The notes beneath the pieces were generated by a model. That model did no database searches. It worked only from the letters and a program-made list of their open reading frames with translations, and was not told the origin of the DNA. Positions 20,529 to 50,303 of a stretch of DNA of 54,525 nt are shown in pieces (positions within the stretch are counted from its first letter, which is position 1; every line of letters starts with the position of its first letter). The position numbers and the translations under genes were made by a program. This stretch comes from Deltaproteobacteria bacterium (GTDB lineage: Bacteria > Desulfobacterota > GWC2-55-46), in contig JBBTGV010000033.1 of assembly GCA_038041305.1 (NCBI GenBank), positions 1 through 54,525 on the forward strand, read 5' to 3'.

Positions 20529-20601
20529 GCGCCTGTAGCTCAGCGGACAGAGCATCGGCCTCCGAAGCCGAGGGTCAGGAGTTCAAATCTCCTCAGGCGC
20601 G
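20529..20601 (+). tRNA. tRNA-Arg (anticodon CCG)
   Basis: Folded by hand. Acceptor GCGCCTG/CAGGCGC, D arm GCTC..GAGC, anticodon stem TCGGC/GCCGA with loop CTCCGAA, T arm AGGAG-TTCAAAT-CTCCT, discriminator G. No encoded CCA. Confidence 0.9.
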
Positions 20602-20713
20602 CTTGGTTTTTTTAAAAACAAATCAGGCGAAGAACAAACAGCAAAAAAGAAGAAAATACTGCGATGAATGTCTTGCCGGAACACGCCTGTTTTCGGCAAG
20701 GCCTTTTTGTCCA

Positions 20714-20790
<77 letters not shown>

Positions 20791-21282: not shown

Positions 21283-21345
21283 CGCCTTTGTGTTCATTCA
21301 TGCCTTGACTTGTCCGGGATATTCGTTTAAATTACGGAAATAGAT

Positions 21346-21521
21346 GTCAGGTATCCCCATCCGGGGATTTTTAAAAGGGAATCCCGTGATCTGCGCTGAG
21401 CAGAGATTCGGGAGCGGTCCCGCCGCTGTAACCGGGTACGAAGGCCGACAATGCCACTGGGGATTAAACCCCGGGAAGGCTGAGCCGTAGGATTATCCGG
21501 GAGCCAGAAGACCTGCCTGAC
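21346..21521 (+). promoter_or_regulatory. cobalamin (B12) riboswitch 1
   Basis: AAAAGGGAATCCCGTGA..., CCCGCCGCTGTAA, GCCACTGG...CCCGGGAAGGC, and the B12 box GAGCCAGAAGACCTGCC. P1 pairs GTCAGGT (21346-21352) with GCCTGAC (21515-21521). The first 24 nt of the core are identical to riboswitch 2. Confidence 0.8.
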
Positions 21522-21616
21522 GCATAGCGTAGCATTAAAGCCTTCTCGCGGACAGGAAGGCCCCTTAAGGACTTTAGTCTTTGGGGTAGGAAACTGAGGG
21601 TCAAGAAACAGGGTGC

Positions 21617-21649
21617 AATCCTCGGAGTTAAGGCTCCGGGGATTTTTTT
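21617..21649 (+). terminator. riboswitch expression-platform terminator (attenuator)
   Basis: AATCCTCGGAG (21617-21627) / CTCCGGGGATT (21634-21644) stem with one mismatch, merging into a T-run to 21649. Confidence 0.55.
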
Positions 21650-21786
21650 ATTTCAATCGGATGCCCGGCTTGACCCGCCCCTTCAGGGCGTGGGTCGGCC
21701 GGGCCACAGAAAAGAAAAATGCCTTGCCGACAATCCCGGCCATTTTTGGCAGGCGATTGAAAATTATTTCAACAAGGAGACAAGAC

Positions 21787-23088
21787 ATGACGCAGATAGA
21801 GGCCGCAAGAAAGGGCGTTATAACCAATGAGATGAGGGAGGTCTCCGCAAGAGAGGGGCATACTCCGGAATACATAATGGAGATGATAGCCCTCGGCAGG
21901 GTCGTGATTCCAAACAACAAAAACAGGAAGGCAAGGCTCGTCGGCATAGGCGCAGGGCTAAGGACAAAGGTCAATGCGAGCATCGGCACCTCGTCCGACA
22001 TAGTTGACGCAAAGGCAGAGGTGGAAAAGGCGGTTGCCGCCGAAGAGGCGGGGGCGGACACATTAATGGAGCTCTCGGTCGGAGGCGACTTGGACAGCAT
22101 AAGAAAGCAGGTGCTTGGGGCAACGAACCTCTCGGTGGGCAGCGTCCCGCTTTATCAGGCGTTTAAGGAGGCGATAGAAAAGTATCACGACCCGAATAAA
22201 CTGACAGAGGGGCTTTTGTTTGATGTGATTGAGAGGCAGTGCGAAGACGGCATATCCTTCATGGCCGTGCACTGCGGCATAACGAGGCTTACGATAGAGA
22301 GGCTAAACAGGCAGGGTTACCGCTACGGGGGGCTTGTCTCAAGGGGGGGATCCTACATGGTGGGCTGGATGCTTAAGAACAACAGGGAAAATCCCCTTTA
22401 CGAGAGGTTTGACCGCGTTGCCGGGATACTTAAGAAATACGACTGCGTCCTAAGCCTCGGCAATGGCCTGAGGGCCGGCGCCGTGCACGACAGCCTTGAC
22501 AGGGCGCAGGTGCAGGAGCTTTTGATAAACTGCGAGCTTGCCGAGACGGGCCAGGACATGGGATGCCAGATGATGTGCGAGGGCCCCGGGCACCTGCCGT
22601 TGGACGACATAGAGGCCAATGTAAGGCTTCAGAAAAGGATGAGCGCGGATGCGCCTTTTTACGTGTTGGGCCCTCTTACAACCGACATTGCCGCGGGCTA
22701 TGACCACATATCCGCCGCAATCGGGGCCGCCGAGGCCGCAAGATACGGGGCGGACCTCATATGCTATGTCACCCCGGCGGAGCATCTGGCCCTGCCGAAC
22801 AAGGAAGATGTCGTTGAAGGGGTGAGGGCGGCTCGTATCGCGGCCCATGTCGGCGACATGGTAAAGCTCAAAGGCAGGGACAGGGACATGCGCATGGCAA
22901 AGGCAAGAAGGGATTTGAAATGGGATGAGCAGCAAAGGCTCGGTCTTTTCGGGGAAAGGGCCGCACAAATAAGGGCGAGCCGCGCGCCGGACAATTCCGA
23001 CACATGCACCATGTGCGGGAGCTTCTGCGCCCTTGACAATGTCAATGCCTTTTTCAGGGAATGCCTTGAAAAAGGCCCGAAACGCTGA
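21787..23088 (+). CDS. bzaF: ThiC-family radical-SAM enzyme; given the B12 riboswitch, probably 5-hydroxybenzimidazole synthase (BzaF-type) rather than HMP-P synthase ThiC
   Basis: Start at ATG 21787 (MTQIEAARKGVITNEM, SD AAGGAGA 7 nt upstream). ThiC hallmarks are present throughout (NASIGTS, LMELSVGG, VPLYQA, MCEGPGH, VTPAEHL) with the C-terminal CTMCGSFCAL cluster motif. The ORF-track start 21613 lies inside the attenuator. Confidence 0.8.
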   Translation: MTQIEAARKGVITNEMREVSAREGHTPEYIMEMIALGRVVIPNNKNRKARLVGIGAGLRTKVNASIGTSSDIVDAKAEVEKAVAAEEAGADTLMELSVGGDLDSIRKQVLGATNLSVGSVPLYQAFKEAIEKYHDPNKLTEGLLFDVIERQCEDGISFMAVHCGITRLTIERLNRQGYRYGGLVSRGGSYMVGWMLKNNRENPLYERFDRVAGILKKYDCVLSLGNGLRAGAVHDSLDRAQVQELLINCELAETGQDMGCQMMCEGPGHLPLDDIEANVRLQKRMSADAPFYVLGPLTTDIAAGYDHISAAIGAAEAARYGADLICYVTPAEHLALPNKEDVVEGVRAARIAAHVGDMVKLKGRDRDMRMAKARRDLKWDEQQRLGLFGERAAQIRASRAPDNSDTCTMCGSFCALDNVNAFFRECLEKGPKR

Positions 23089-23345: not shown

Positions 23346-24806
23346 ATGCAACGCGCACTGGACGCACTGGAAAACCTAATAGATGAAACATTAAGCCCGC
23401 GCTACAACCCGCTTTATTGCCTCGGCGCCATCTGCGTATTCTTCCTATGGGTGCTTTTAGTAAGCGGCGTATACCTCTTTGTATTCTATAAGATAGGCAG
23501 CCCCTATGAATCCGTTAAGACAATAACCGAGAATCAGTGGATGATCGGCGCGTTTTTCCGGGGCATGCATCGTTATTCAGCGGACGGCCTTGTGTTTTTC
23601 GCGCTTTTACACCTAAGCCGCGAGTTCATAAGGGGAAGGTTTCGCCACGGGAGGTGGACGCAGTGGGTTACCGGCGTACTGACGCTCGGCGTCATATGGA
23701 CAACAGGGGTCATCGGGTACTGGATGGTATGGGACCAGAGGAGCCAGCTCGTAGCCGAACTCTCCTCAAAACTCCTTGATTACCTGCCCATATTCGGCGA
23801 ATCCCTGTCAATCGCCTTTACAACGCCGGAGCTTGTCACGAACCTTTTCTTTCTCATAGCTTTATTCCTGCACCTTACGCTTCCGGTGCTTCTTTTCATA
23901 TTCATATGGCTTCATGTCATGAGGGTGACAAAGCCCCGCATACACCCGCCGAGGCCCGTCTATGCAGGGGTCGCCGTCTCCCTTGCCTTTATGGCCGTAT
24001 TCGCGCCGGTTAAAAGCCTTTTGCCCGCGAATACGGATAAGATTATTTCAGTTATCGGCATTGATTGGTTCTACCTCTTTATATATCCGATGCTAAACAG
24101 CGCTCCTGCCTGGCTTTCGTGGCTTACCATCTCCGCGTCTACGGCTGTTCTCATTGCCGTGCCGTGGATATTCCCAAAAAAAAGGCCGGCCCCGGCAGCG
24201 ATAAAAACAGAGAACTGTTCGGGATGCGCCGTATGCCGCGAGGAATGCCCGTATTCCGCCATATTCATAAGGCCCTCAGGGCCCGATGCAGGCACCGCCG
24301 AGGTGATACCCTCAAGGTGCGCCAGCTGCGGCATATGCGTCGGGTCATGCGCGTTCAACGCAGTGGACTTTCCCATTAAGAGGCACGAGGACATAATGGC
24401 GGAGATTTCCGCAAAGGTCCTCGGCGCGGGCAATAAAGGCCCTTTTAAGCTCTTTTTCGCCTGCTCGCACATAAGCGGCCTTGACCATGCCTTTGCAGGG
24501 CATGCCGGGCCGGATATGCGCCAAGCGGGTCTTATAAAACTCCCGTGCGCCGGCATGGTGAATGCCGGCTGGATTGAATACGCCCTCAAGCTCGGGGCGG
24601 GCAATGTGGTCATCTTAGGGTGCAAAGAGGGCGCCGGGTGGTACCGCACAGGAAATACGCTTTTGTCAGAGAGGGTCGCGATGCTTTCTGATAAGGACAA
24701 TGCCTCAAGGGTCAGCGTTCACCTCACGTCAAGGCTGACTGAAAAGACGCTCCATGAGCGCATAAGCGCGGTAAATGAGGGGGTTCGCCTAACCGGAGAT
24801 GTTTAA
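23346..24806 (+). CDS. fusion protein: bc-type cytochrome b (helices A-F) + 2x[4Fe-4S] ferredoxin + MvhD/FlpD-like domain
   Basis: Two H-x13-H haem-ligand pairs (MHRYSADGLVFFALLH; LHLTLPVLLFIFIWLH), GYWMVWDQ, and an ef-loop IDWFYLFIYPML in place of PEWY. After TM6 come CSGCAVCREECP and CASCGICVGSCA, then LIKLPCAGMVNAGWIEYALKLGAGNVVILGCKEGAGWYRTGN (MvhD-like). Confidence 0.75.
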   Translation: MQRALDALENLIDETLSPRYNPLYCLGAICVFFLWVLLVSGVYLFVFYKIGSPYESVKTITENQWMIGAFFRGMHRYSADGLVFFALLHLSREFIRGRFRHGRWTQWVTGVLTLGVIWTTGVIGYWMVWDQRSQLVAELSSKLLDYLPIFGESLSIAFTTPELVTNLFFLIALFLHLTLPVLLFIFIWLHVMRVTKPRIHPPRPVYAGVAVSLAFMAVFAPVKSLLPANTDKIISVIGIDWFYLFIYPMLNSAPAWLSWLTISASTAVLIAVPWIFPKKRPAPAAIKTENCSGCAVCREECPYSAIFIRPSGPDAGTAEVIPSRCASCGICVGSCAFNAVDFPIKRHEDIMAEISAKVLGAGNKGPFKLFFACSHISGLDHAFAGHAGPDMRQAGLIKLPCAGMVNAGWIEYALKLGAGNVVILGCKEGAGWYRTGNTLLSERVAMLSDKDNASRVSVHLTSRLTEKTLHERISAVNEGVRLTGDV

Positions 24807-25347
24807 AAAAGCCCTGAAATGTTTAGCCGCAGTAATCGCGCTGGCCGCGCCTCTGGCCGTGGTGCTCTTTTTTTCAGAGTCGGATTACGGATTTTACGAC
24901 CCGCAAAGCGCGGTCTTGAAGTTGAGCATAAAGCACGCCGGGCACAGGACGGTTGAGTGCGACGACATGCAGATCCTTAAAGAGGAGGCCGAACGATACA
25001 GGGCCATGATCAAGGATACCAAGAGCGCGAAGATGAAGCTTAAAAAGCTCGGCTCGTGCAGCAGGGGCAGAAACCCGGTGTATGTTGAGCTGTATGCCGA
25101 TGAAAGGCTTCTGGTCTCAGGGTCGTTTGAGGCTGGCGGATGGACAAAGGACGGTGCGTCCTTCATATACGGCAAATATCCGATAGCGCCGGGAAAGAGG
25201 CGCGTTGTCGTAAAGATGCGCGATTCAGGGCAGTCGGATGCCTTTGATTATTCGTTCAGCAAGGAAGTGGAGTTTGAGGCAGGACGCTTAAGGGTCGTTA
25301 AATTTGACGAGACAGGCAAGAAAATCTTTGTGCAGCAGGCTCCATGA
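24799..25347 (+). CDS. hypothetical membrane-anchored protein
   Basis: 182 aa with an N-terminal TM/signal anchor (LKCLAAVIALAAPLAVVLFF), then a beta-rich soluble domain. No recognisable motif. Its start overlaps the upstream gene by 8 nt. Confidence 0.55.
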   Translation: MFKKALKCLAAVIALAAPLAVVLFFSESDYGFYDPQSAVLKLSIKHAGHRTVECDDMQILKEEAERYRAMIKDTKSAKMKLKKLGSCSRGRNPVYVELYADERLLVSGSFEAGGWTKDGASFIYGKYPIAPGKRRVVVKMRDSGQSDAFDYSFSKEVEFEAGRLRVVKFDETGKKIFVQQAP

Positions 25348-25396: not shown

Positions 25397-26233
25397 TCAA
25401 TCCAGGAGCTTTGGACTGCCCCTTCTAAAAAGTTTATATACTATCCAGACAAGGGTCGCCCCCTGAAGGGCCGAGCCTAACGCGAGCGCCGCTATCGCGC
25501 CGAAGTTAAGCCTGTAAATGCCCGAGACCTCGTCATAGCGGTAGCAGAAAAGTATCACCTTGTCTATTATGCCCGAGGGGTTTAAGAAGGCCGAGGCAAC
25601 CCCTGAGCCGGAGGCAAGAACCACGGCGTTGACAAGCTCCTCCTGATTGAAGTTCATGCCGTAGACCTGCTTTAGTATCGTCCCGTCCCTGCCAACTACG
25701 GTTGTGAGGTTCATGTGGTCAAAACCCCCGTCCGGGAGCCTCTCATAATAAAAACCGAGTTCCTTTGTGAGGGCCTGTATTGTCTTTGCGCCGGCGGTTG
25801 CAAACCTCCATTTGGTGAAGTCGTCCGTAAAGCGCGCGCCAAAAGACTTAAGCACGGACGGGGTGTCATGATCGGGGTCAAAGCCGATTGAGAGGGCCGT
25901 AAAATCCCCGCCTGATTTCATCTTTGCGATGGCGAAGGCCTGCTTGAGCCTGCCCGTTATGTTGGAGCAGACATGCGGACAACTCGTGTATATGTAGCTT
26001 ATGACGAGCGGCCTGCCCATAAGCCCTTTGAGGGGAAGGGCATTGTTGTCCTGATCAATAAGCGTGTAGCCGGGTATTTTTTTGCCTATCGCCGCGTTTG
26101 CCGTTGCAACTGGGTCCGAGGCCCATAGGGGCGTTGCAGGGCCTGAGATTAAGGCAACGAGGGACACGACAAAGGCAATAAGCGTATTTTTGGAATAAAG
26201 GCGGCTCATTCCGCTAACGTAGAGAGATGTCAA
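25397..26233 (-). CDS. SCO1/SenC family copper chaperone with extra C-terminal TM segment
   Basis: Thioredoxin-like fold with the CPHVC motif (YIYTSCPHVCSNI). N-terminal anchor and a C-terminal hydrophobic tail. An alternative start at ATG 26209 is possible. Confidence 0.85.
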   Translation of the reverse strand: MTSLYVSGMSRLYSKNTLIAFVVSLVALISGPATPLWASDPVATANAAIGKKIPGYTLIDQDNNALPLKGLMGRPLVISYIYTSCPHVCSNITGRLKQAFAIAKMKSGGDFTALSIGFDPDHDTPSVLKSFGARFTDDFTKWRFATAGAKTIQALTKELGFYYERLPDGGFDHMNLTTVVGRDGTILKQVYGMNFNQEELVNAVVLASGSGVASAFLNPSGIIDKVILFCYRYDEVSGIYRLNFGAIAALALGSALQGATLVWIVYKLFRRGSPKLLD

Positions 26234-27089
26234 GTATCACGGACAGGAAAAGTCCGCTTAGATATATCATGGAGGCCCTGAAATTCCTCCGCGCGATCTC
26301 CTTTGACTGGTCGCGGATGAACTCAATGTTCCTGTAAATGAAAAAAGCGCCGAATATAACGGCAGAGGCCGTGTATACGCTGCCGAGGAACCCGAACCAC
26401 ACCGGCAGCAGGGACGAGAGCACGAGAAGCAGGGTGTTCAGGAGCACGTACCGGGCGGTCTTGAAATCCCCTATGATGTTAGGCAGCATGGGGATGCCGG
26501 CCCTGCCGTATTCCTCTCTGTGGAGGACCGCGAAGCTCCAGAAGTGCGACGGGGTCCAGAAAAACATCACAACGGCAAGGAATACCGGCAGCAGGCAGAA
26601 CTCAGGAGAGGCCGAGGCCCCGCCCGCAAGCACGGCAAAGCTGCCCGCCAGCCCGCCGATGACTATGTTAATCCAGCTCCGCCTCTTCAGCCACACGGTG
26701 TATACGATTGCGTAGACAAAGCCGCCGAGGAAGAGGTGCAGGGCGACCATGGGGTTAAGCACCTTAAGGGAAAGCAGTATTGACGCGATGAACAGCCCCG
26801 TTGCCGCGATAAGAATCCTGCCTGAGCCCGCCACATGGCCGGCGGGCAGGGGTCTCTTTTCCGTCCTCTTCATTATGAGGTCTATGTCCCTGTCAAAATA
26901 ATGGTTGAACGCGCTTGCGCCCGCGGAGGCCATCATGGTAACGAGCGCGAGATACAACAGGGTTGATGCGGATACTGATACGCCAGCGTTTGACGAGGAT
27001 ATAAGGCCCACGATCGCGGTGAATGTTATAAGGGAGCAGATCCGGAATTTAAAAAGCGGCAAATAGTTTTTAAGCGAGGCCGAGGTCAT
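26214..27089 (-). CDS. ctaB: protohaem IX farnesyltransferase (haem O synthase)
   Basis: UbiA-family polytopic protein with NHYFDRDIDLIMKRTEKRPLPAG and FWTPSHFW motifs. 4-nt overlap with the upstream gene. Confidence 0.9.
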   Translation of the reverse strand: MTSASLKNYLPLFKFRICSLITFTAIVGLISSSNAGVSVSASTLLYLALVTMMASAGASAFNHYFDRDIDLIMKRTEKRPLPAGHVAGSGRILIAATGLFIASILLSLKVLNPMVALHLFLGGFVYAIVYTVWLKRRSWINIVIGGLAGSFAVLAGGASASPEFCLLPVFLAVVMFFWTPSHFWSFAVLHREEYGRAGIPMLPNIIGDFKTARYVLLNTLLLVLSSLLPVWFGFLGSVYTASAVIFGAFFIYRNIEFIRDQSKEIARRNFRASMIYLSGLFLSVILDISLR

Positions 27090-28522
27090 GCCGCCTCCCC
27101 CGGGGGTTCTGCCAAGGCCTTGCGCCTTAACAGCGAGAGCCCGGCATTGGCGACGAACATCGCCCCGCCTATTATGGCCACGAGGCCGCCGAGCCCGAAA
27201 ACGGCCATGCTCAGGAGCTTGATCGGGTCGTCAAGGTTCTGCGCCGCCCCGAAGGTCTTTCTCGCCACCCCGTGCGAGCCCGCCCAGAACATCCCGAGCA
27301 CGAAAAGCGTTTGCCCTATGCCGAACACGTACGGCTGAATGGAGGCCGCCTTCTCGGAGTAAAGGGTTCCCTTTAGGTTCCGGATTAGATGATACGCCAT
27401 GCCCATGAACGCCGCCGTCACGCCGCCGATTGCGCCGTGGTAATGCGAAGGTATCTTGGTGTTGTATCCGTGTATGAACATTGACATGAGGCCCCCGAGC
27501 GCAAAAAGGACAATAGACATCGCAAGGGATGCAAACTCCGGGCTTCGCCACGGGAGTTTTTTAATCCCTTCATAAAGGCCGCTTGTCCTGCCCGGCGAGG
27601 CGGACGCTACGACAACGGCCGCGAATATCACCGTGGAAGGCCCAAGGCCGAACTGCATGAGCCTTGTGAAGACCGTCCTGTAGCCCATGGTGTCCACGTC
27701 GTAGAACAGGTATGCAAACGGCGCAAAGGCTACGCTTGCCAGATACAGGCCGAAGACGGGTCTGCCAAGGGCCGCCTGTATGGAGATCTTCTTAAACAGG
27801 ACATCCGCGAGATAAAGCCATACAGAGGCCATTGCCATTGTGTTCGCGAACTGGAGCATGTGCCCGCCGCCCCAGAAAAGCGTCTCAAGGTCCGCTGTCC
27901 CTATCCCCGCGCCTGAGGAGGTCTTAAAATAGAAAGACAGCGCAAAACACATAAAGGCCACGAAGACCGCAATACTTGACGCAATCATACCGAACCTCAC
28001 AAGGGCCGTTGAACCGCGGTATCCGTTCCCTTTGATCCCGTAAAAAACCGTTAAAAAGACATTTGCGAGCAGTATAAGCATTCCCGCGGCAAGCAGCAGG
28101 AGCCCCGCGTAAAAGGCCGGATGGTTCAGCACCGGCACATAATTGATGAAAAGCGGAGTTCCGAGCCCCAAGAGGGATGCGGCTATTATGACGGCCGTGC
28201 CGCAGACCGACGCGGCGAGGCCCGCCCATCCGAGGATTGGGCTAAAGACCCCTGTTGAGAGGAAGTCCGTGCTCCCCAACAGCCACAGCGCGCCCTCAAA
28301 GGCAAGAAACCATATCACAAAGGCGAGATTGACGTGCGCAACGAGCGCAACGCGCACATAATCGGTTGAAGGGAATATGGACTGGATGAAAGGGGTGCGC
28401 GCCATTGCCACGAGGAATGCGAATACGCCCGCAAATATGAGAGAAACGACCGCGAAAAGCACAAGGCCGTAGAAAAGTCTTTTGCTGTGTTTGTTTTCGG
28501 ACAGACCTTTTATGTTATTCAT
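27086..28522 (-). CDS. haem-copper oxidase subunit-I-like paralogue lacking the helix-VII CuB histidine pair
   Basis: About 12 TM. Helix II His (VALVAHVNL), helix VI LFWGGGHMLQF (compare FWFFGHPEVY), and helix X HGYNTKIPSHYHGAIGG (compare HNT...GHFH). Where the neighbouring paralogue has SEHHLLVDP, this protein has TRLMQFGLGP. Confidence 0.7.
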   Translation of the reverse strand: MNNIKGLSENKHSKRLFYGLVLFAVVSLIFAGVFAFLVAMARTPFIQSIFPSTDYVRVALVAHVNLAFVIWFLAFEGALWLLGSTDFLSTGVFSPILGWAGLAASVCGTAVIIAASLLGLGTPLFINYVPVLNHPAFYAGLLLLAAGMLILLANVFLTVFYGIKGNGYRGSTALVRFGMIASSIAVFVAFMCFALSFYFKTSSGAGIGTADLETLFWGGGHMLQFANTMAMASVWLYLADVLFKKISIQAALGRPVFGLYLASVAFAPFAYLFYDVDTMGYRTVFTRLMQFGLGPSTVIFAAVVVASASPGRTSGLYEGIKKLPWRSPEFASLAMSIVLFALGGLMSMFIHGYNTKIPSHYHGAIGGVTAAFMGMAYHLIRNLKGTLYSEKAASIQPYVFGIGQTLFVLGMFWAGSHGVARKTFGAAQNLDDPIKLLSMAVFGLGGLVAIIGGAMFVANAGLSLLRRKALAEPPGEAA

Positions 28523-28584: not shown

Positions 28585-28719
28585 TTAATGGAGCTCCCAG
28601 ATTGTTGAGAGGTACTTAAAGTTCAGAAAATAAACCGCTATGAAGGTGATTAGGAATATGAGCGCAAGCACGAATGTGCCGGGCGCTACGAACCTTCCGT
28701 TGCCGTGTTCGTCTGACAT
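28585..28719 (-). CDS. small single-TM protein (44 aa), possible oxidase subunit IIa-like peptide
   Basis: Below the ORF-track size cutoff. ATG at 28719 is preceded by GGGAGG 9 nt upstream. Translation MSDEHGNGRFVAPGTFVLALIFLITFIAVYFLNFKYLSTIWELH. Fills the gap between the two subunit-I-like genes. Confidence 0.55.
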   Translation of the reverse strand: MSDEHGNGRFVAPGTFVLALIFLITFIAVYFLNFKYLSTIWELH

Positions 28720-28753: not shown

Positions 28754-30268
28754 CTATGCGAGTTTTTTGCCGTACATTACGGTTCCAAGCGTTACGACCA
28801 CGTACGCGATGCCGCCGAGCGCCGCGAGTATCGCCCCTATGCCGAACACCCCTATCCACATGTAGACGGTCGGGTCCCACGAGAAGGCGAACGGAGAGCC
28901 GCCGAAGTTGACGATGTCCCAGTGCCTCCTCGGGACGCCGTATGCGCCGGCAAGCATCATGCCTCCGCTTACAAGCGTAATGCCGACGCCGAAGAGCCAC
29001 GGCTGTATCTTGGCGAGCTTCATTGCCCAGACCTCCCTCCTGAATATCAAGGGGAGTATGTAGTAGGTGACGGCCATGAAGGCCATGGTGGTGCCTCCCA
29101 CGACCGTTCCGTGGAAGTGCCCCGTGATCCTCCATGTGTTGTGGGCGGTGATGTTGATCTGCTCTGTGCCGAATGTCACGCCCGTGATGCCGCCCAGGAA
29201 CCCGAACATGAATATGGAGAGTATCGCCCCTGAAAAGGCGGGGTTGCCCCACGGCGCCATCTTGAACCACTCAAACAGGCCCTTTGTGTAGCCCTGCTTC
29301 CTGAGCGCCACCTCCATGCCCGCGGGCACCGCGAGGGCGTGTATCATGCTGGCAAGCACCGCCAGATGCATGATGTAGCCCGTGTTCCATATCTTGTGCG
29401 CGTTGGAGAATACCGGGTCAACGAGCAAGTGGTGCTCGGAGGCGACGTTTATAAAGAGTATGTAGAGCACGAAGGCCGTCCTGCAGAGCTTCTCGTTTAT
29501 GGGCTTCATGCCGACCGAGAGCGCCCCGATGAGGTACCATATTGAGATCATGGCGCAGACGTTAATCTGCTGGGATGCATGTCCGAGCGCCCACCATACG
29601 AGCCTGTAAGCCGAGGGGTCCATGCCCGTAAGCCCGAGCGACCAAAGGAGCGTCGGGATATAGATGCCGGCCCCGTGCAGGAGCGTCGTCGTTGCGATAG
29701 CGGCCGCCGCGAAAAGCCCGAATGTCACGAGCGGGAAGCTCTGGGCCGTATAGGTCTTTTCCTTTCTTGCCTTGTAGAGCGTGGCGAAGAAGAGAAAAAC
29801 GCCGATAAGCGCGCCCACGGCGAAAAGTATTATGCCGGTGTAATAGAACGGGTGGGCCATCAGCGGCGGATACGACGTAAAGAGCACGTCCGCCTTGCCC
29901 GAAAGCACCATTATGTTCGTAAGCACGGCCCCGCCGAGCATGAGGAAGTAAGATATCCACCCGACGGTAGGCGCCGCGAGCCTTGAGTTCAGGAGCACCG
30001 CGCTTCCTATGTAGAGGGCGGCCACCTCAAAGAATATTACCCATACGATAAGCATGTCAAGGCCGTGAGCCGTCAGGACCCTGTAGAACCACTCGGCCGG
30101 CAGTATGTGGAACGCGGGCCAGCGTGTGAACGCGGCGCCGAGGGCGGCAAGCCCGCCTATTGCTATGAATATGACCGCCGTGATAGTATTTGCCTTTATG
30201 AGCTTTTCCGCCGGCAGATGCACCTTAAGGCCGGTAACGGAACAAGTCCTGAATTCCTGCTCGTTCAT
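28754..30268 (-). CDS. haem-copper oxidoreductase subunit I, B-family-like, without the cross-linked tyrosine (NOR-like active site)
   Basis: Helix II YRVLTAHGLDML. Helix VI WWALGHASQQINV (Gln where A/B-family oxidases have Tyr). Helix VII SEHHLLVDP. Helix X AHNTWRITGHFHGTVVGG. Confidence 0.85.
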   Translation of the reverse strand: MNEQEFRTCSVTGLKVHLPAEKLIKANTITAVIFIAIGGLAALGAAFTRWPAFHILPAEWFYRVLTAHGLDMLIVWVIFFEVAALYIGSAVLLNSRLAAPTVGWISYFLMLGGAVLTNIMVLSGKADVLFTSYPPLMAHPFYYTGIILFAVGALIGVFLFFATLYKARKEKTYTAQSFPLVTFGLFAAAAIATTTLLHGAGIYIPTLLWSLGLTGMDPSAYRLVWWALGHASQQINVCAMISIWYLIGALSVGMKPINEKLCRTAFVLYILFINVASEHHLLVDPVFSNAHKIWNTGYIMHLAVLASMIHALAVPAGMEVALRKQGYTKGLFEWFKMAPWGNPAFSGAILSIFMFGFLGGITGVTFGTEQINITAHNTWRITGHFHGTVVGGTTMAFMAVTYYILPLIFRREVWAMKLAKIQPWLFGVGITLVSGGMMLAGAYGVPRRHWDIVNFGGSPFAFSWDPTVYMWIGVFGIGAILAALGGIAYVVVTLGTVMYGKKLA

Positions 30269-30277
30269 TGTTGCCTC

Positions 30278-30823
30278 CTATTTGACTATCAATTTCCCGA
30301 CCATGGTGTGGTGCCCAAGGCCGCAGTATTCGTTGCAGAGTATTGAAAACTCCCCGCTTGTGGTCGGCTTTATGGTCAGCACGTAGTCCTGTCCGGGTAT
30401 TGCCATAAAGTTGATGTTCATCGGATATATTGAAAACCCGTGCTGAAAATCCAGGGATGAAAGATGCAGCCTGTAAGTCTTGTTCTTTTCAAGCTCAAGT
30501 ATTGGGTCAAAGTTCCACGCCTTCGCGACAAGGAAGATGTCGGAGCCCGCCGGCGGATGCACGACCGCGAACCCGTTTATGGAGACCGGGGCGTTGTTTT
30601 CGTCCCGGACCTGATATTTGCTTATGAACTCATCGGCCAGCGCGCTGAAGCGTTCAGGCGTCACCTTGTAGGATTCCGAGGAAGGGTTCTGCTTTCCCAT
30701 CACATGCCATAAGGGCATCATGGAGAAGGTGAAGATCATCCATACGAGCGCAAGGATGAGCCAGATCTTTTCCTCCCTGTCTATCGGTTTCCACCAGACC
30801 CTTTCCGGTGCGGTTAAACTCAT
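30278..30823 (-). CDS. haem-copper oxidase subunit II, single-TM cupredoxin with complete CuA site
   Basis: DFQHGFSI ... FSILCNEYCGLGHHTMVGKLIV provides all CuA ligands (H, C, C, H, M). The size and single TM resemble ba3-type subunit II. Confidence 0.85.
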   Translation of the reverse strand: MSLTAPERVWWKPIDREEKIWLILALVWMIFTFSMMPLWHVMGKQNPSSESYKVTPERFSALADEFISKYQVRDENNAPVSINGFAVVHPPAGSDIFLVAKAWNFDPILELEKNKTYRLHLSSLDFQHGFSIYPMNINFMAIPGQDYVLTIKPTTSGEFSILCNEYCGLGHHTMVGKLIVK

Positions 30824-31137: not shown

Positions 31138-31200
31138 TCTTTTTATTGTCTTATTCGTGCAGAATGTTTATATTGAAAAACATTGGAGGAAAAATCACAC

Positions 31201-31896
31201 ATGGAGAATGTTATGTTTATGGAAAAAACGCTGGACGTAAGGGGAATGGAGCCGAGGCTCAGGCACCCGAAGATATTTGAGACCTTCAGGGCATTGGCGC
31301 CCGGGGAATCCTTTGTGCTCATAAACGACCATGAGCCGAGGCCGCTTCTTTACCAGTTCCAGGCTGAGCACGACGGCGAGTTTGAGTGGTGGCCCCTTGA
31401 GCAGGGTCCTGTTGACTGGAGGGTTTCAATAGGAAAAAGAAAGGTTAGGGATTTGGACAGGACCATCACCGACTACATGCAGACGGACCACAGGCGGCTG
31501 GATGCCCTATACGGCGCATTTCAGGAGAAATACAAACAGGGCGACTGGGCCGGCGCGGACGCGCTCTTCAGGGAATTCAGCCTCGGCTTAAGAAGGCACA
31601 TAAAGGTTGAGGAGGAGATACTTTTTCCCGTGTTTGAGGAAAAAACAGGCATGAAGGACGCGGGCCCGACCTTCGTGATGCGCATGGAGCACGGCGAGAT
31701 AAAGGAGCTTCTTGACGGCATCCTTGCGGGCATCGGCAGGAAGGACGAGGCGGGCGTAAAGAACTCGGAATACAACCTCGCGAACATACTCGCTGACCAC
31801 AACATGAAGGAAGAGCACATACTCTATCCCGAATCCGACGCGTTTATAGCCGGCAGGGAGCGCGCGGACGTCATAAAAAAATCTCAGGCCGCTTAA
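31201..31896 (+). CDS. DUF2249 + hemerythrin-like (HHE cation-binding) domain protein
   Basis: N-terminal LDVRGMEPRLRHPKIFETF...FVLINDHEPRPL (DUF2249-like). C-terminal DHRRLD..., HIKVEEEILFPVFEE, MEHGEIKELL and DHNMKEEHILYP (di-iron hemerythrin ligand pattern). SD GGAGGA lies 10 nt before ATG 31201. Confidence 0.8.
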   Translation: MENVMFMEKTLDVRGMEPRLRHPKIFETFRALAPGESFVLINDHEPRPLLYQFQAEHDGEFEWWPLEQGPVDWRVSIGKRKVRDLDRTITDYMQTDHRRLDALYGAFQEKYKQGDWAGADALFREFSLGLRRHIKVEEEILFPVFEEKTGMKDAGPTFVMRMEHGEIKELLDGILAGIGRKDEAGVKNSEYNLANILADHNMKEEHILYPESDAFIAGRERADVIKKSQAA

Positions 31897-49975: not shown

Positions 49976-50060
49976 TGTGAGGCGATACCGCTTGACTTAA
50001 ATGCCTTAAAATGTAAAGATGCGCTCTGGAGTTTTTTGCAGTCAAAACCGAATACTGAAG

Positions 50061-50250
50061 ATGTCCGGGCACCATTTGAACTGGTTTAAAAGGGAATCCC
50101 GTGATCTGCCTTTAAGATGAGGCGGAGAATCGGGGACGGACCCGCCACTGTGAACGGGACGAAATCTTAAATTGCCACTGACCTTGCAAAAAAGGCCGGG
50201 AAGGCTTAAGAGAGTAGGAAGACCGTAAGTCAGGAGACCTGCCCGGATAT
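50061..50250 (+). promoter_or_regulatory. cobalamin (B12) riboswitch 2
   Basis: AAAAGGGAATCCCGTGA, GACCCGCCACTGTGAA, TTGCCACTG, CCGGGAAGGC, and the B12 box GTCAGGAGACCTGCC. P1 pairs TCCGGGC (about 50064-50070) with GCCCGGA (about 50241-50247). Confidence 0.85.
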
Positions 50251-50303
50251 TCCTCACGCATTCTTCGACGGTAAAGAAGGTGGGGGGCGTGTGTTTTTTT
50301 AAA

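Follow-up and report, generated by a model that had tools for sequence, protein, structure and literature searches.

The window analysed here comprises positions 1 to 54,525 of contig JBBTGV010000033.1 from a Deltaproteobacteria bacterium (GenBank assembly GCA_038041305.1). Its minus strand carries, at 27086..28522, a gene hereafter called par, which encodes a paralogue of subunit I of the haem-copper oxidoreductases (HCOs). The gene lies in an operon-like block with a subunit I/II pair on its upstream side and ctaB and sco1 on its downstream side, a grouping recognised in the earlier note on this DNA, and the 4-nt overlap with ctaB given there (27086–27089) is real. A promoter and terminator scan of the operon gave the same counts as in shuffled sequence. 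The product of par is a genuine and conserved HCO subunit I homologue, with ligands for two haems and one of the three CuB/FeB His residues. Structurally, it is a member of the HCO superfamily that lacks the defining three-His (His3) binuclear site.

Fold, distribution and selection of par

The open reading frame (ORF) encodes 478 amino acids and, as previously proposed, a subunit I paralogue with 12 transmembrane (TM) helices. COX1 (PF00115) was its sole Pfam match (63.5 bits, cutoff 34.8). BLASTP against the upstream subunit I showed 29% identity (E = 1e-42), and the closest named sequence relative was of the eNOR type. The AlphaFold2 (AF2) model, based on an alignment with 84 homologues, contained twelve long helices and was confident (mean predicted local distance difference test score, pLDDT, 90.1; predicted template modelling score, pTM, 0.91). 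Sequence similarity to entries of the Protein Data Bank (PDB) was marginal (E = 0.036), and the top fold match in Foldseek was subunit I of the Thermus thermophilus ba3 oxidase (template modelling score 0.82, probability 1.00); cbb3, cNOR and aa3 structures ranked below it, with cbb3 scoring 0.63–0.64. Among the features that define an HCO subunit I, par has the 12-TM fold, the profile match and the haem His ligands; of the three CuB/FeB His residues (one in helix VI, two adjacent in helix VII), it has His221 alone.

A word-indexed protein search with par retrieved at least 513 homologues, the best 120 of which were all approximately 460–500 amino acids long and 44%–86% identical, and family-specific peptide patterns located at least 573 par loci among GTDB species-representative genomes. 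When 1.84 billion cluster representatives were searched exhaustively with a profile, 715 matched at E ≤ 1e-30 (50% identity clusters). These loci span Deltaproteobacteria/Thermodesulfobacteriota, Nitrospirota, Nitrospinota, and Beta- and Gammaproteobacteria, and the proteobacterial carriers include Rhodocyclaceae, Burkholderiales, Sterolibacteriaceae, Woeseiaceae, Thioploca and Competibacteraceae. A protein search of a plasmid collection yielded distant HCOs alone (26%–28% identity) and no par family member in a cultured host. The par family is a large, all but uncharacterised offshoot of the HCOs in which the distal site has one His.

The ratio of nonsynonymous to synonymous substitution rates (dN/dS) of par against an 86%-identical orthologue was 0.185, indicating purifying selection. 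This bears on two readings that the earlier note had itself raised, namely that par is a decaying duplicate of the adjacent subunit I or belongs to an unrelated family such as NnrS. The gene does adjoin its paralogue, and canonical ligands have been lost. Nevertheless, the ORF is intact, hundreds of orthologues in several phyla share invariant motifs, the AF2 model is confident, and the Pfam scan returned COX1 and no other family. Both readings were rejected on the basis of Pfam, conservation and dN/dS, and their remaining probability is negligible.

Table 1. Positions of par, its active-site residues and other features discussed in the text (window coordinates unless a related locus is named)
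Feature	Position	Strand	Evidence or remark
par, CuB-His-depleted HCO subunit I paralogue	27086..28522	minus	478 aa, 12 TM helices; ORF, Pfam, AF2, Foldseek
His63, helix II axial ligand of the low-spin haem (AHVNL)	codon 28334..28336	minus	translation
His221-Met-Leu-Gln224 (FWGGGHMLQF), retained helix VI CuB/FeB-type His and Gln at His+3	27851..27862	minus	translation
Ala270-Tyr271, site of the lost helix VII His-His pair	codons 27710..27715	minus	translation and alignments
His360-Tyr361-His362 (PSHYHG), helix X ligands of the high-spin and low-spin haems	27437..27445	minus	translation
ctaB, haem O synthase, overlapping par by 4 nt	26214..27089	minus	TIGR01473 267 bits, above cutoff
Sco1/SenC copper chaperone	25397..26233	minus	Pfam SCO1-SenC 60.5 bits
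ORF of 44 aa with a single TM helix (MSDEHGNGRF...STIWELH), between subunit I and par	28585..28719	minus	translation; no Pfam match
eNOR-type HCO subunit I, 504 aa	28754..30268	minus	Pfam COX1 204 bits; all six canonical His; GHASQQ
CuA-type subunit II, 181 aa (CNEYCGLGHHTM)	30278..30823	minus	Pfam COX2, NCBIfam CoxB; CuA motif from sequence
DUF2249 and hemerythrin-domain protein (RIC/YtfE/DnrN-like)	31183..31896	plus	Pfam, NCBIfam
Protein of 182 aa, N-terminal TM anchor and beta-sandwich domain	24799..25347	plus	AF2 pLDDT 89.5
Cytochrome b (b6-type) + 2x[4Fe-4S] + FlpD/MvhD-like domain	23346..24806	plus	Pfam; candidate electron-input module
Cytochrome b + [2Fe-2S] (Fer2) + FAD + NAD(P)-binding (FNR-like) fusion	L049:11352-13286		Proteobacteria
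Membrane protein of ~135–140 aa matching just the helix X region of COX1	L015:8681-9103; L003:5554-5958	minus; minus	IHVHFNLLGW, H-x-H motif
tRNA-Arg(CCG)	20529-20602	plus	
tRNA-Lys(CTT)	20715-20790	plus	
Cobalamin riboswitch	21332-21534	plus	Rfam RF00174, 122.6 bits
Gene directly downstream of this riboswitch	21613-23088	plus	Pfam ThiC_Rad_SAM domain in the L001 orthologue
Second cobalamin riboswitch	50050-50260	plus	106.5 bits; upstream of a gene block from ~50370

Active-site residues and comparison with known families

The His residues that the earlier note had read in AHVNL, LFWGGGHMLQF and the helix X motif are His63, His221 and His360/His362, and all are near-invariant in the family. 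The Gln at His+3 in helix VI, likewise described there, is common to par (Gln224) and the neighbouring subunit I. The position given for the missing helix VII His-His pair, TRLMQFGLGP, was wrong: this string corresponds to residues 286–295 at the start of helix VIII in the AF2 model. Three alignments (BLASTP, MAFFT, and phmmer against a B-family oxidase from the PDB) agreed in pairing ASEHHLLVD of the neighbour with FAPFAYLFYD of par, which places the lost pair at Ala270-Tyr271, at the periplasmic end of helix VII. The central statement that two of the three CuB His residues have been lost holds after this realignment.

Conservation was assessed in 87 par relatives taken from related loci and in the best 150 of the 715 profile-search representatives clustered at 50% identity. 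In the former set, His63, Glu213, Trp217, His221, Gln224, Met289, His360, Tyr361, His362, Arg421 and Lys422 were 100% invariant. In the latter, the haem-ligand columns were retained in 147 (His63), 150 (His360), 150 (Tyr361) and 148 (His362) sequences, and the distal and propionate columns in 149 (His221), 146 (Gln224), 148 (Arg421) and 149 (Lys422). At the lost pair, none of the 87 relatives had His in either column; column 270 was aliphatic or small (Ile, Ala, Leu or Val), and column 271 was Tyr in 80, Phe in six and Ala in one. Tyr271 was considered as an essential catalytic residue, an idea weakened by its presence in just 72 of the 150 diverse representatives.

In the 150-sequence set, helix VII His residues were lacking in 141 members, while eight had one and a single member had both. 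The His-retaining members (P0290 with both; P0266, P0267, P0279, P0289, P0347, P0349 and P0380 with one) otherwise share the family motifs FWGGGHxLQF, PAHYHG and RK. Judged from these sequences, they look like transitional forms and could be used to date the loss of the metal site. Since a few members still keep one or both residues, the metal-site His appear to have been lost inside an already distinct family, which suggests that its chemistry does not need the site.

The par product was mapped residue by residue onto the T. thermophilus ba3 oxidase (B-family; PDB 3S8F/1EHK) from alignments alone. Both proteins have the 12-TM fold, bis-His ligands of the low-spin haem, the proximal His of the high-spin haem, the helix VI His with a Trp four residues before it, and an Arg/Lys pair: Arg421/Lys422 of par correspond in the alignment to ba3 Arg449/Arg450, which solvate and anchor the haem propionates (PMC3141039). 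Unlike ba3, par lacks the helix VII CuB His residues and has Phe in place of the cross-linked Tyr237, and no dedicated CuA subunit II could be assigned to it. The residue at His+4 is Phe225 in 85 of the 87 relatives, so that the cross-linked Tyr of the O2-reducing A and B families is missing. The positions of the ba3 K proton pathway (Tyr237, Tyr244, Tyr248, Ser309, Thr312 and Thr315; PMC3141039) are all hydrophobic in the par family. Structures of ba3 Val236 mutants were among the Foldseek matches of par. We take Gln224 to occupy the position of ba3 Val236, where the gas channel reaches its inner end.

Comparison with other families of the superfamily sets par apart from each. The eNOR of Rhodothermus marinus (Murali et al. 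2024, PMC11214002) and par are both B-family-derived, have Gln at His+3 and lack the cross-linked Tyr, and eNOR-like genes and par frequently share one cluster with ctaB and sco1. However, eNOR has all three metal-site His and a Gln at His+4, whereas par, with a single one of these His and with Phe at His+4, does not qualify as an eNOR. The three active-site His are completely conserved in all HCO families except gNOR, the first family found to replace one of them (PMC11214002). Together, gNOR and NOD provide a precedent within the superfamily for an altered His3 site. The single replacement in gNOR is by Asp, itself a metal ligand (PMC11214002), whereas in par a hydrophobic residue and Tyr have taken the place of two His. 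With no Asp substitution at a lost His, par is not gNOR-like, and residue inspection separates it in the same manner from gNOR, nNOR, sNOR and bNOR (two of three His gone, no Asp or Asn instead). NOD is derived from qNOR and has one His replaced by Asn, in contrast to the B-family/eNOR-related lineage of par. The NCBI name of par, cbb3-type CcoN, is not borne out: the protein had no NCBIfam ccoN match, and no ccoO or ccoP was found nearby in the window.

A literature search for an HCO family without the CuB His found OccS of 'Candidatus Dechloromonas occultata' as the sole precedent (Szeinbaum et al. 2020, bioRxiv 10.1101/695007). OccS is a COX1-like protein whose function was described as unknown; it keeps the haem His and the helix VI His, lacks the Tyr and mostly lacks the helix VII His pair, and its gene belongs to a cluster of 19 in which multihaem cytochromes c abound (bioRxiv 10.1101/695007). 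Compared by description only, this residue pattern matches that of the par family, including the loss of most but not all helix VII His. The host of OccS belongs to Dechloromonas, and par relatives occur in Rhodocyclaceae and other Betaproteobacteria. The multihaem cytochrome context, in contrast, is not seen around par or most of its relatives, with ORFs containing two or more CxxCH motifs near par in just six of the loci examined. The literature on eNOR in Desulfobacterota yielded no description of the par gene cluster.

Gene neighbourhood and partner proteins

The neighbouring subunit I has ba3 as its closest solved structure (1e-34). Its GHASQQ motif puts Gln at His+4, the site of the cross-linked Tyr in oxygen reductases, and GHxSQQIN, HH and HFH were found in all 32 co-located subunit I orthologues. 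Published work treats a Gln in place of the cross-linked Tyr as diagnostic of eNOR (PMC8756737), and the enzyme of Rhodothermus marinus has been experimentally shown to be an NO reductase (PMC11214002). The gene at 28754..30268 has this Gln together with an intact His3 site and a subunit II with a complete CuA motif. The earlier note had described a functional-looking I/II pair; judged by its motifs, the pair is eNOR-type and not a standard oxidase, with Gln in place of the cross-linked Tyr pointing to the reduction of NO rather than O2. The 44-residue ORF that follows was called at the same position in the loci of the closest relatives (L001 and L002), and in L029 and L032 weak homologues come after an eNOR-like subunit I; another weak match, in L080, had no adjoining eNOR-like subunit I. 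By analogy with ba3 subunit IIa, the product of this ORF may belong to the eNOR-like enzyme as a small subunit. The DUF2249-hemerythrin gene is divergent from the operon and is found at the same position in L001 and L002; its similarity to the YtfE/RIC/DnrN Fe-S repair proteins is weak.

The ORFs of 86 related loci were called and matched to the window proteins, and partner counts were taken from the 41 loci with enough flanking DNA. In these, ctaB adjoins par in 38, sco1 is present in 30, a cytochrome b fusion protein in 28, an eNOR-like subunit I in 25 and a homologue of the 182-residue protein in 22. The tandem arrangement, which the earlier note had suggested looking for in other genomes, is not the conserved unit, since par lies away from any I/II pair in many genomes. 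Constantly accompanying par are haem O synthase, cytochrome b fusion proteins and the unannotated 182-residue protein.

The arrangement of these partners varies among lineages. In Proteobacteria, the genes follow one another in a remarkably uniform sequence (subunit II, eNOR-like subunit I, ctaB, sco1, cytochrome b-2x[4Fe-4S]-FlpD, 182-residue protein, par), and many loci have a cytochrome b-[2Fe-2S]-FAD-NAD(P) fusion directly downstream of par. In many Deltaproteobacteria, ctaB is the sole companion of par, in frequent cases with a monohaem cytochrome c gene coming next (13 loci), and no other HCO was detected in flanks of approximately 7–10 kb. These par-ctaB loci lie opposite a block of Fe-S assembly and repair genes (NifU-like, ScdA_N, DUF1858 and Mrp/ApbC), which was found in 12–16 par loci. 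Other genes near par include ctaA (17 loci), nirS (10 loci, within 7 kb), A-type oxidase operons (6 loci), NorQ-like AAA+ ATPase genes (6 loci, five of them Nitrospirota) and, in some loci, NuoF-like genes, often alongside the cytochrome b-FNR-like fusion.

Next to the NifU-like, DUF1858, ScdA_N and Mrp/ApbC genes, opposite par, we also observed a gene for a small membrane protein that matches just the helix X region of COX1. It was found in L015, L003 and 14 further Deltaproteobacteria and Nitrospirota loci and is absent from the window.

The 182-residue protein had no Pfam or NCBIfam match, and a Foldseek search of its AF2 model against the PDB gave no informative match (best template modelling score 0.37–0.38). 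It has at least 643 homologues, all named hypothetical, with invariant Cys54, Cys87, His46, Arg89, Arg91, Asp118, Tyr124 and Asp142, and in well-flanked loci the gene of the homologue usually lies immediately upstream of par. The possibility that it is a degenerate cupredoxin subunit II found no support (hhalign against the subunit II alignment, probability 0.7%). Together with this family, the cytochrome b-FeS-FlpD and cytochrome b-FNR fusions point to a new electron-input arrangement. Fusions of par itself were also found: a cytochrome b-par polypeptide of 761 amino acids on two contigs, C-terminal TPR repeats in three clusters, and one par-UbiA protein, a singleton that may be an assembly or calling artefact.

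The frequent presence of Sco1 raises the question of whether the distal site still holds a metal. In a remodelled, NOR-like binuclear site, a non-haem Fe or Cu would be bound by His221 and a novel set of non-His ligands (Gln224, Tyr271, Met289 or Glu213). In favour of such a site, the 87-sequence set shows no variation at Glu213, Gln224 or Met289 and has Tyr at position 271 in 92% of its members. One or two of the helix VII His persist in some members of the family, and gNOR is a precedent in which one His has been replaced by Asp (PMC11214002). Furthermore, a NorQ/CbbQ-type AAA+ gene lies directly downstream of par in Nitrospirota loci. However, the eNOR-like enzyme encoded at the same loci, with its CuA and FeB sites, accounts for Sco1 and NorQ just as well. 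In the broader set, the candidate ligands vary (Met289 in 111, Tyr271 in 72 and Glu213 in 135 of 150), column 270 is hydrophobic, and a gap-free alignment would place Met289 at ba3 Leu301, which is not known to face CuB. We therefore consider a remodelled metal site unlikely.

The same neighbourhoods could also be those of a non-catalytic partner, a pseudo-enzyme that serves haem O/A hand-over, assembly, structure or electron relay for nearby eNOR or A-type enzymes. The linkage to ctaB (38/41), ctaA (17 loci), eNOR-like I/II genes (25/41) and A-type operons (6 loci) would be in line with such a role, as would the TPR fusions and a constraint on par that is more relaxed than that on the eNOR-like subunit I. 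The par-UbiA fusion would fit as well, with the reservation about singletons made above. On the other hand, many deltaproteobacterial par-ctaB(-cytochrome c) loci have no other HCO within approximately 7–10 kb on either side. In addition, the distal-pocket residues His221, Gln224 and Trp217 equal the haem ligands in conservation, a constraint for which a simple scaffold would have no need, and the dedicated cytochrome b partners and the cytochrome b-par fusion point to electron through-put. We consider a non-catalytic role unlikely as well.

Elsewhere in the window, two tRNA genes and two cobalamin riboswitches were recognised (Table 1). The gene directly downstream of the first riboswitch has an orthologue in L001 with a ThiC_Rad_SAM domain. 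A ThiC paralogue under B12 control may be a BzaF/HBI-synthase-type gene of anaerobic benzimidazole biosynthesis rather than one of thiamine synthesis.

Proposed function and implications

From these patterns we infer a set of cofactors, a distal site free of non-haem metal, an electron path and a substrate for par. The protein would be the core subunit of a CuB-less, B-family-derived haem protein. His63 and His362 would hold a low-spin haem b and His360 a high-spin haem, with Arg421/Lys422 anchoring the haem propionates. The high-spin haem is probably haem O, as suggested by the near-obligate linkage of par to ctaB even where no other HCO is nearby. Instead of a metal held by three His, the distal pocket would present His221 and the invariant Gln224, joined in this subgroup by Tyr271.

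Electrons would come from the dedicated membrane cytochrome b with its cytoplasmic FeS/FlpD or flavin/NAD(P)H module, a path suggested by the FeS/FlpD- or FNR-type cytochrome b partners and by the cytochrome b-par fusion. They would pass through a transmembrane dihaem cytochrome b to the low-spin haem, originating from quinol, cytoplasmic NAD(P)H or low-potential donors; in the par-ctaB-cytochrome c lineages, the small cytochrome c would supply them. A small molecule would be bound and reduced at the haem alone, most probably NO and alternatively O2 or peroxide. The occurrence of eNOR, NirS, the hemerythrin/RIC-like gene and Fe-S repair genes in the neighbourhood points to a setting of NO or oxidative stress. 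Given that all ba3 K-path positions are hydrophobic in the par family, the protons for the chemistry would come from the periplasmic side, as in cNOR, with no energy conservation. Working beside the neighbouring eNOR-type NO reductase, par would have a non-electrogenic role of a detoxifying or accessory kind.

Of the roles offered in the earlier note (haem-only catalyst, sensor or structural partner), gene context speaks for a redox-active enzyme that works with haem alone. We favour, tentatively and at somewhat below an even chance, the reading of par as a haem-only reductase of NO, with O2 or peroxide as alternative substrates. Several observations weigh against it. The substrate is the weakest step, being assigned from the gene neighbourhood only. 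Sco1 (30/41 loci) and NorQ-like ATPases (6 loci) nearby could mean that a metal is still inserted, and Tyr271 is not universal (72/150). The linkage to ctaB, ctaA and eNOR is equally expected of an assembly factor. The neighbouring subunit I has a dN/dS of 0.049, and the approximately four times higher value of par reflects weaker constraint.

A haem-based gas sensor, or an NO/O2 buffer without turnover, that signals to or gates the neighbouring respiratory enzymes would draw on some of the same features, including the retained high-spin haem site with its polar distal pocket, the NO-related gene context and the TPR-fused variants, which could mediate protein-protein contacts. However, neither par nor most of its relatives (median length 470 amino acids) have a signalling output domain, and the conserved low-spin haem, propionate anchors and dedicated electron donors fit a redox enzyme better. 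A sensory role therefore seems very improbable.

Extending the favoured reading of a haem-only reductase to the partner proteins, par might form a complex with the 182-residue protein and the cytochrome b-FeS/FlpD or cytochrome b-FNR protein. Such a complex would represent a new class of copper-independent, haem-only terminal reductase derived from B-family/eNOR-type HCOs. Its electrons would come from quinol or cytoplasmic NAD(P)H/low-potential donors, and NO (or O2/peroxide) would be reduced at a haem O whose pocket is lined by His and Gln. We offer this wider proposal as a possibility that is more doubtful than not.

The par family has replaced two of the three active-site His residues, keeps both haem sites and is under purifying selection. 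Catalytic activity of this family would mean that the HCO scaffold can function in the absence of CuB/FeB. Aerobic respiration inferred in metagenomes from par-family matches is likely wrong. If the proposed function is correct, par would be an unrecognised NO or O2 enzyme in Desulfobacterota-like bacteria, Nitrospirota, Nitrospinota, and sulfur-oxidising and denitrifying Proteobacteria. As par relatives occur in many groundwater and sediment bacteria, it would then represent a widespread new route of NO/O2 turnover in anoxic groundwater and sediment bacteria, missed by marker-gene surveys based on nor and cox.

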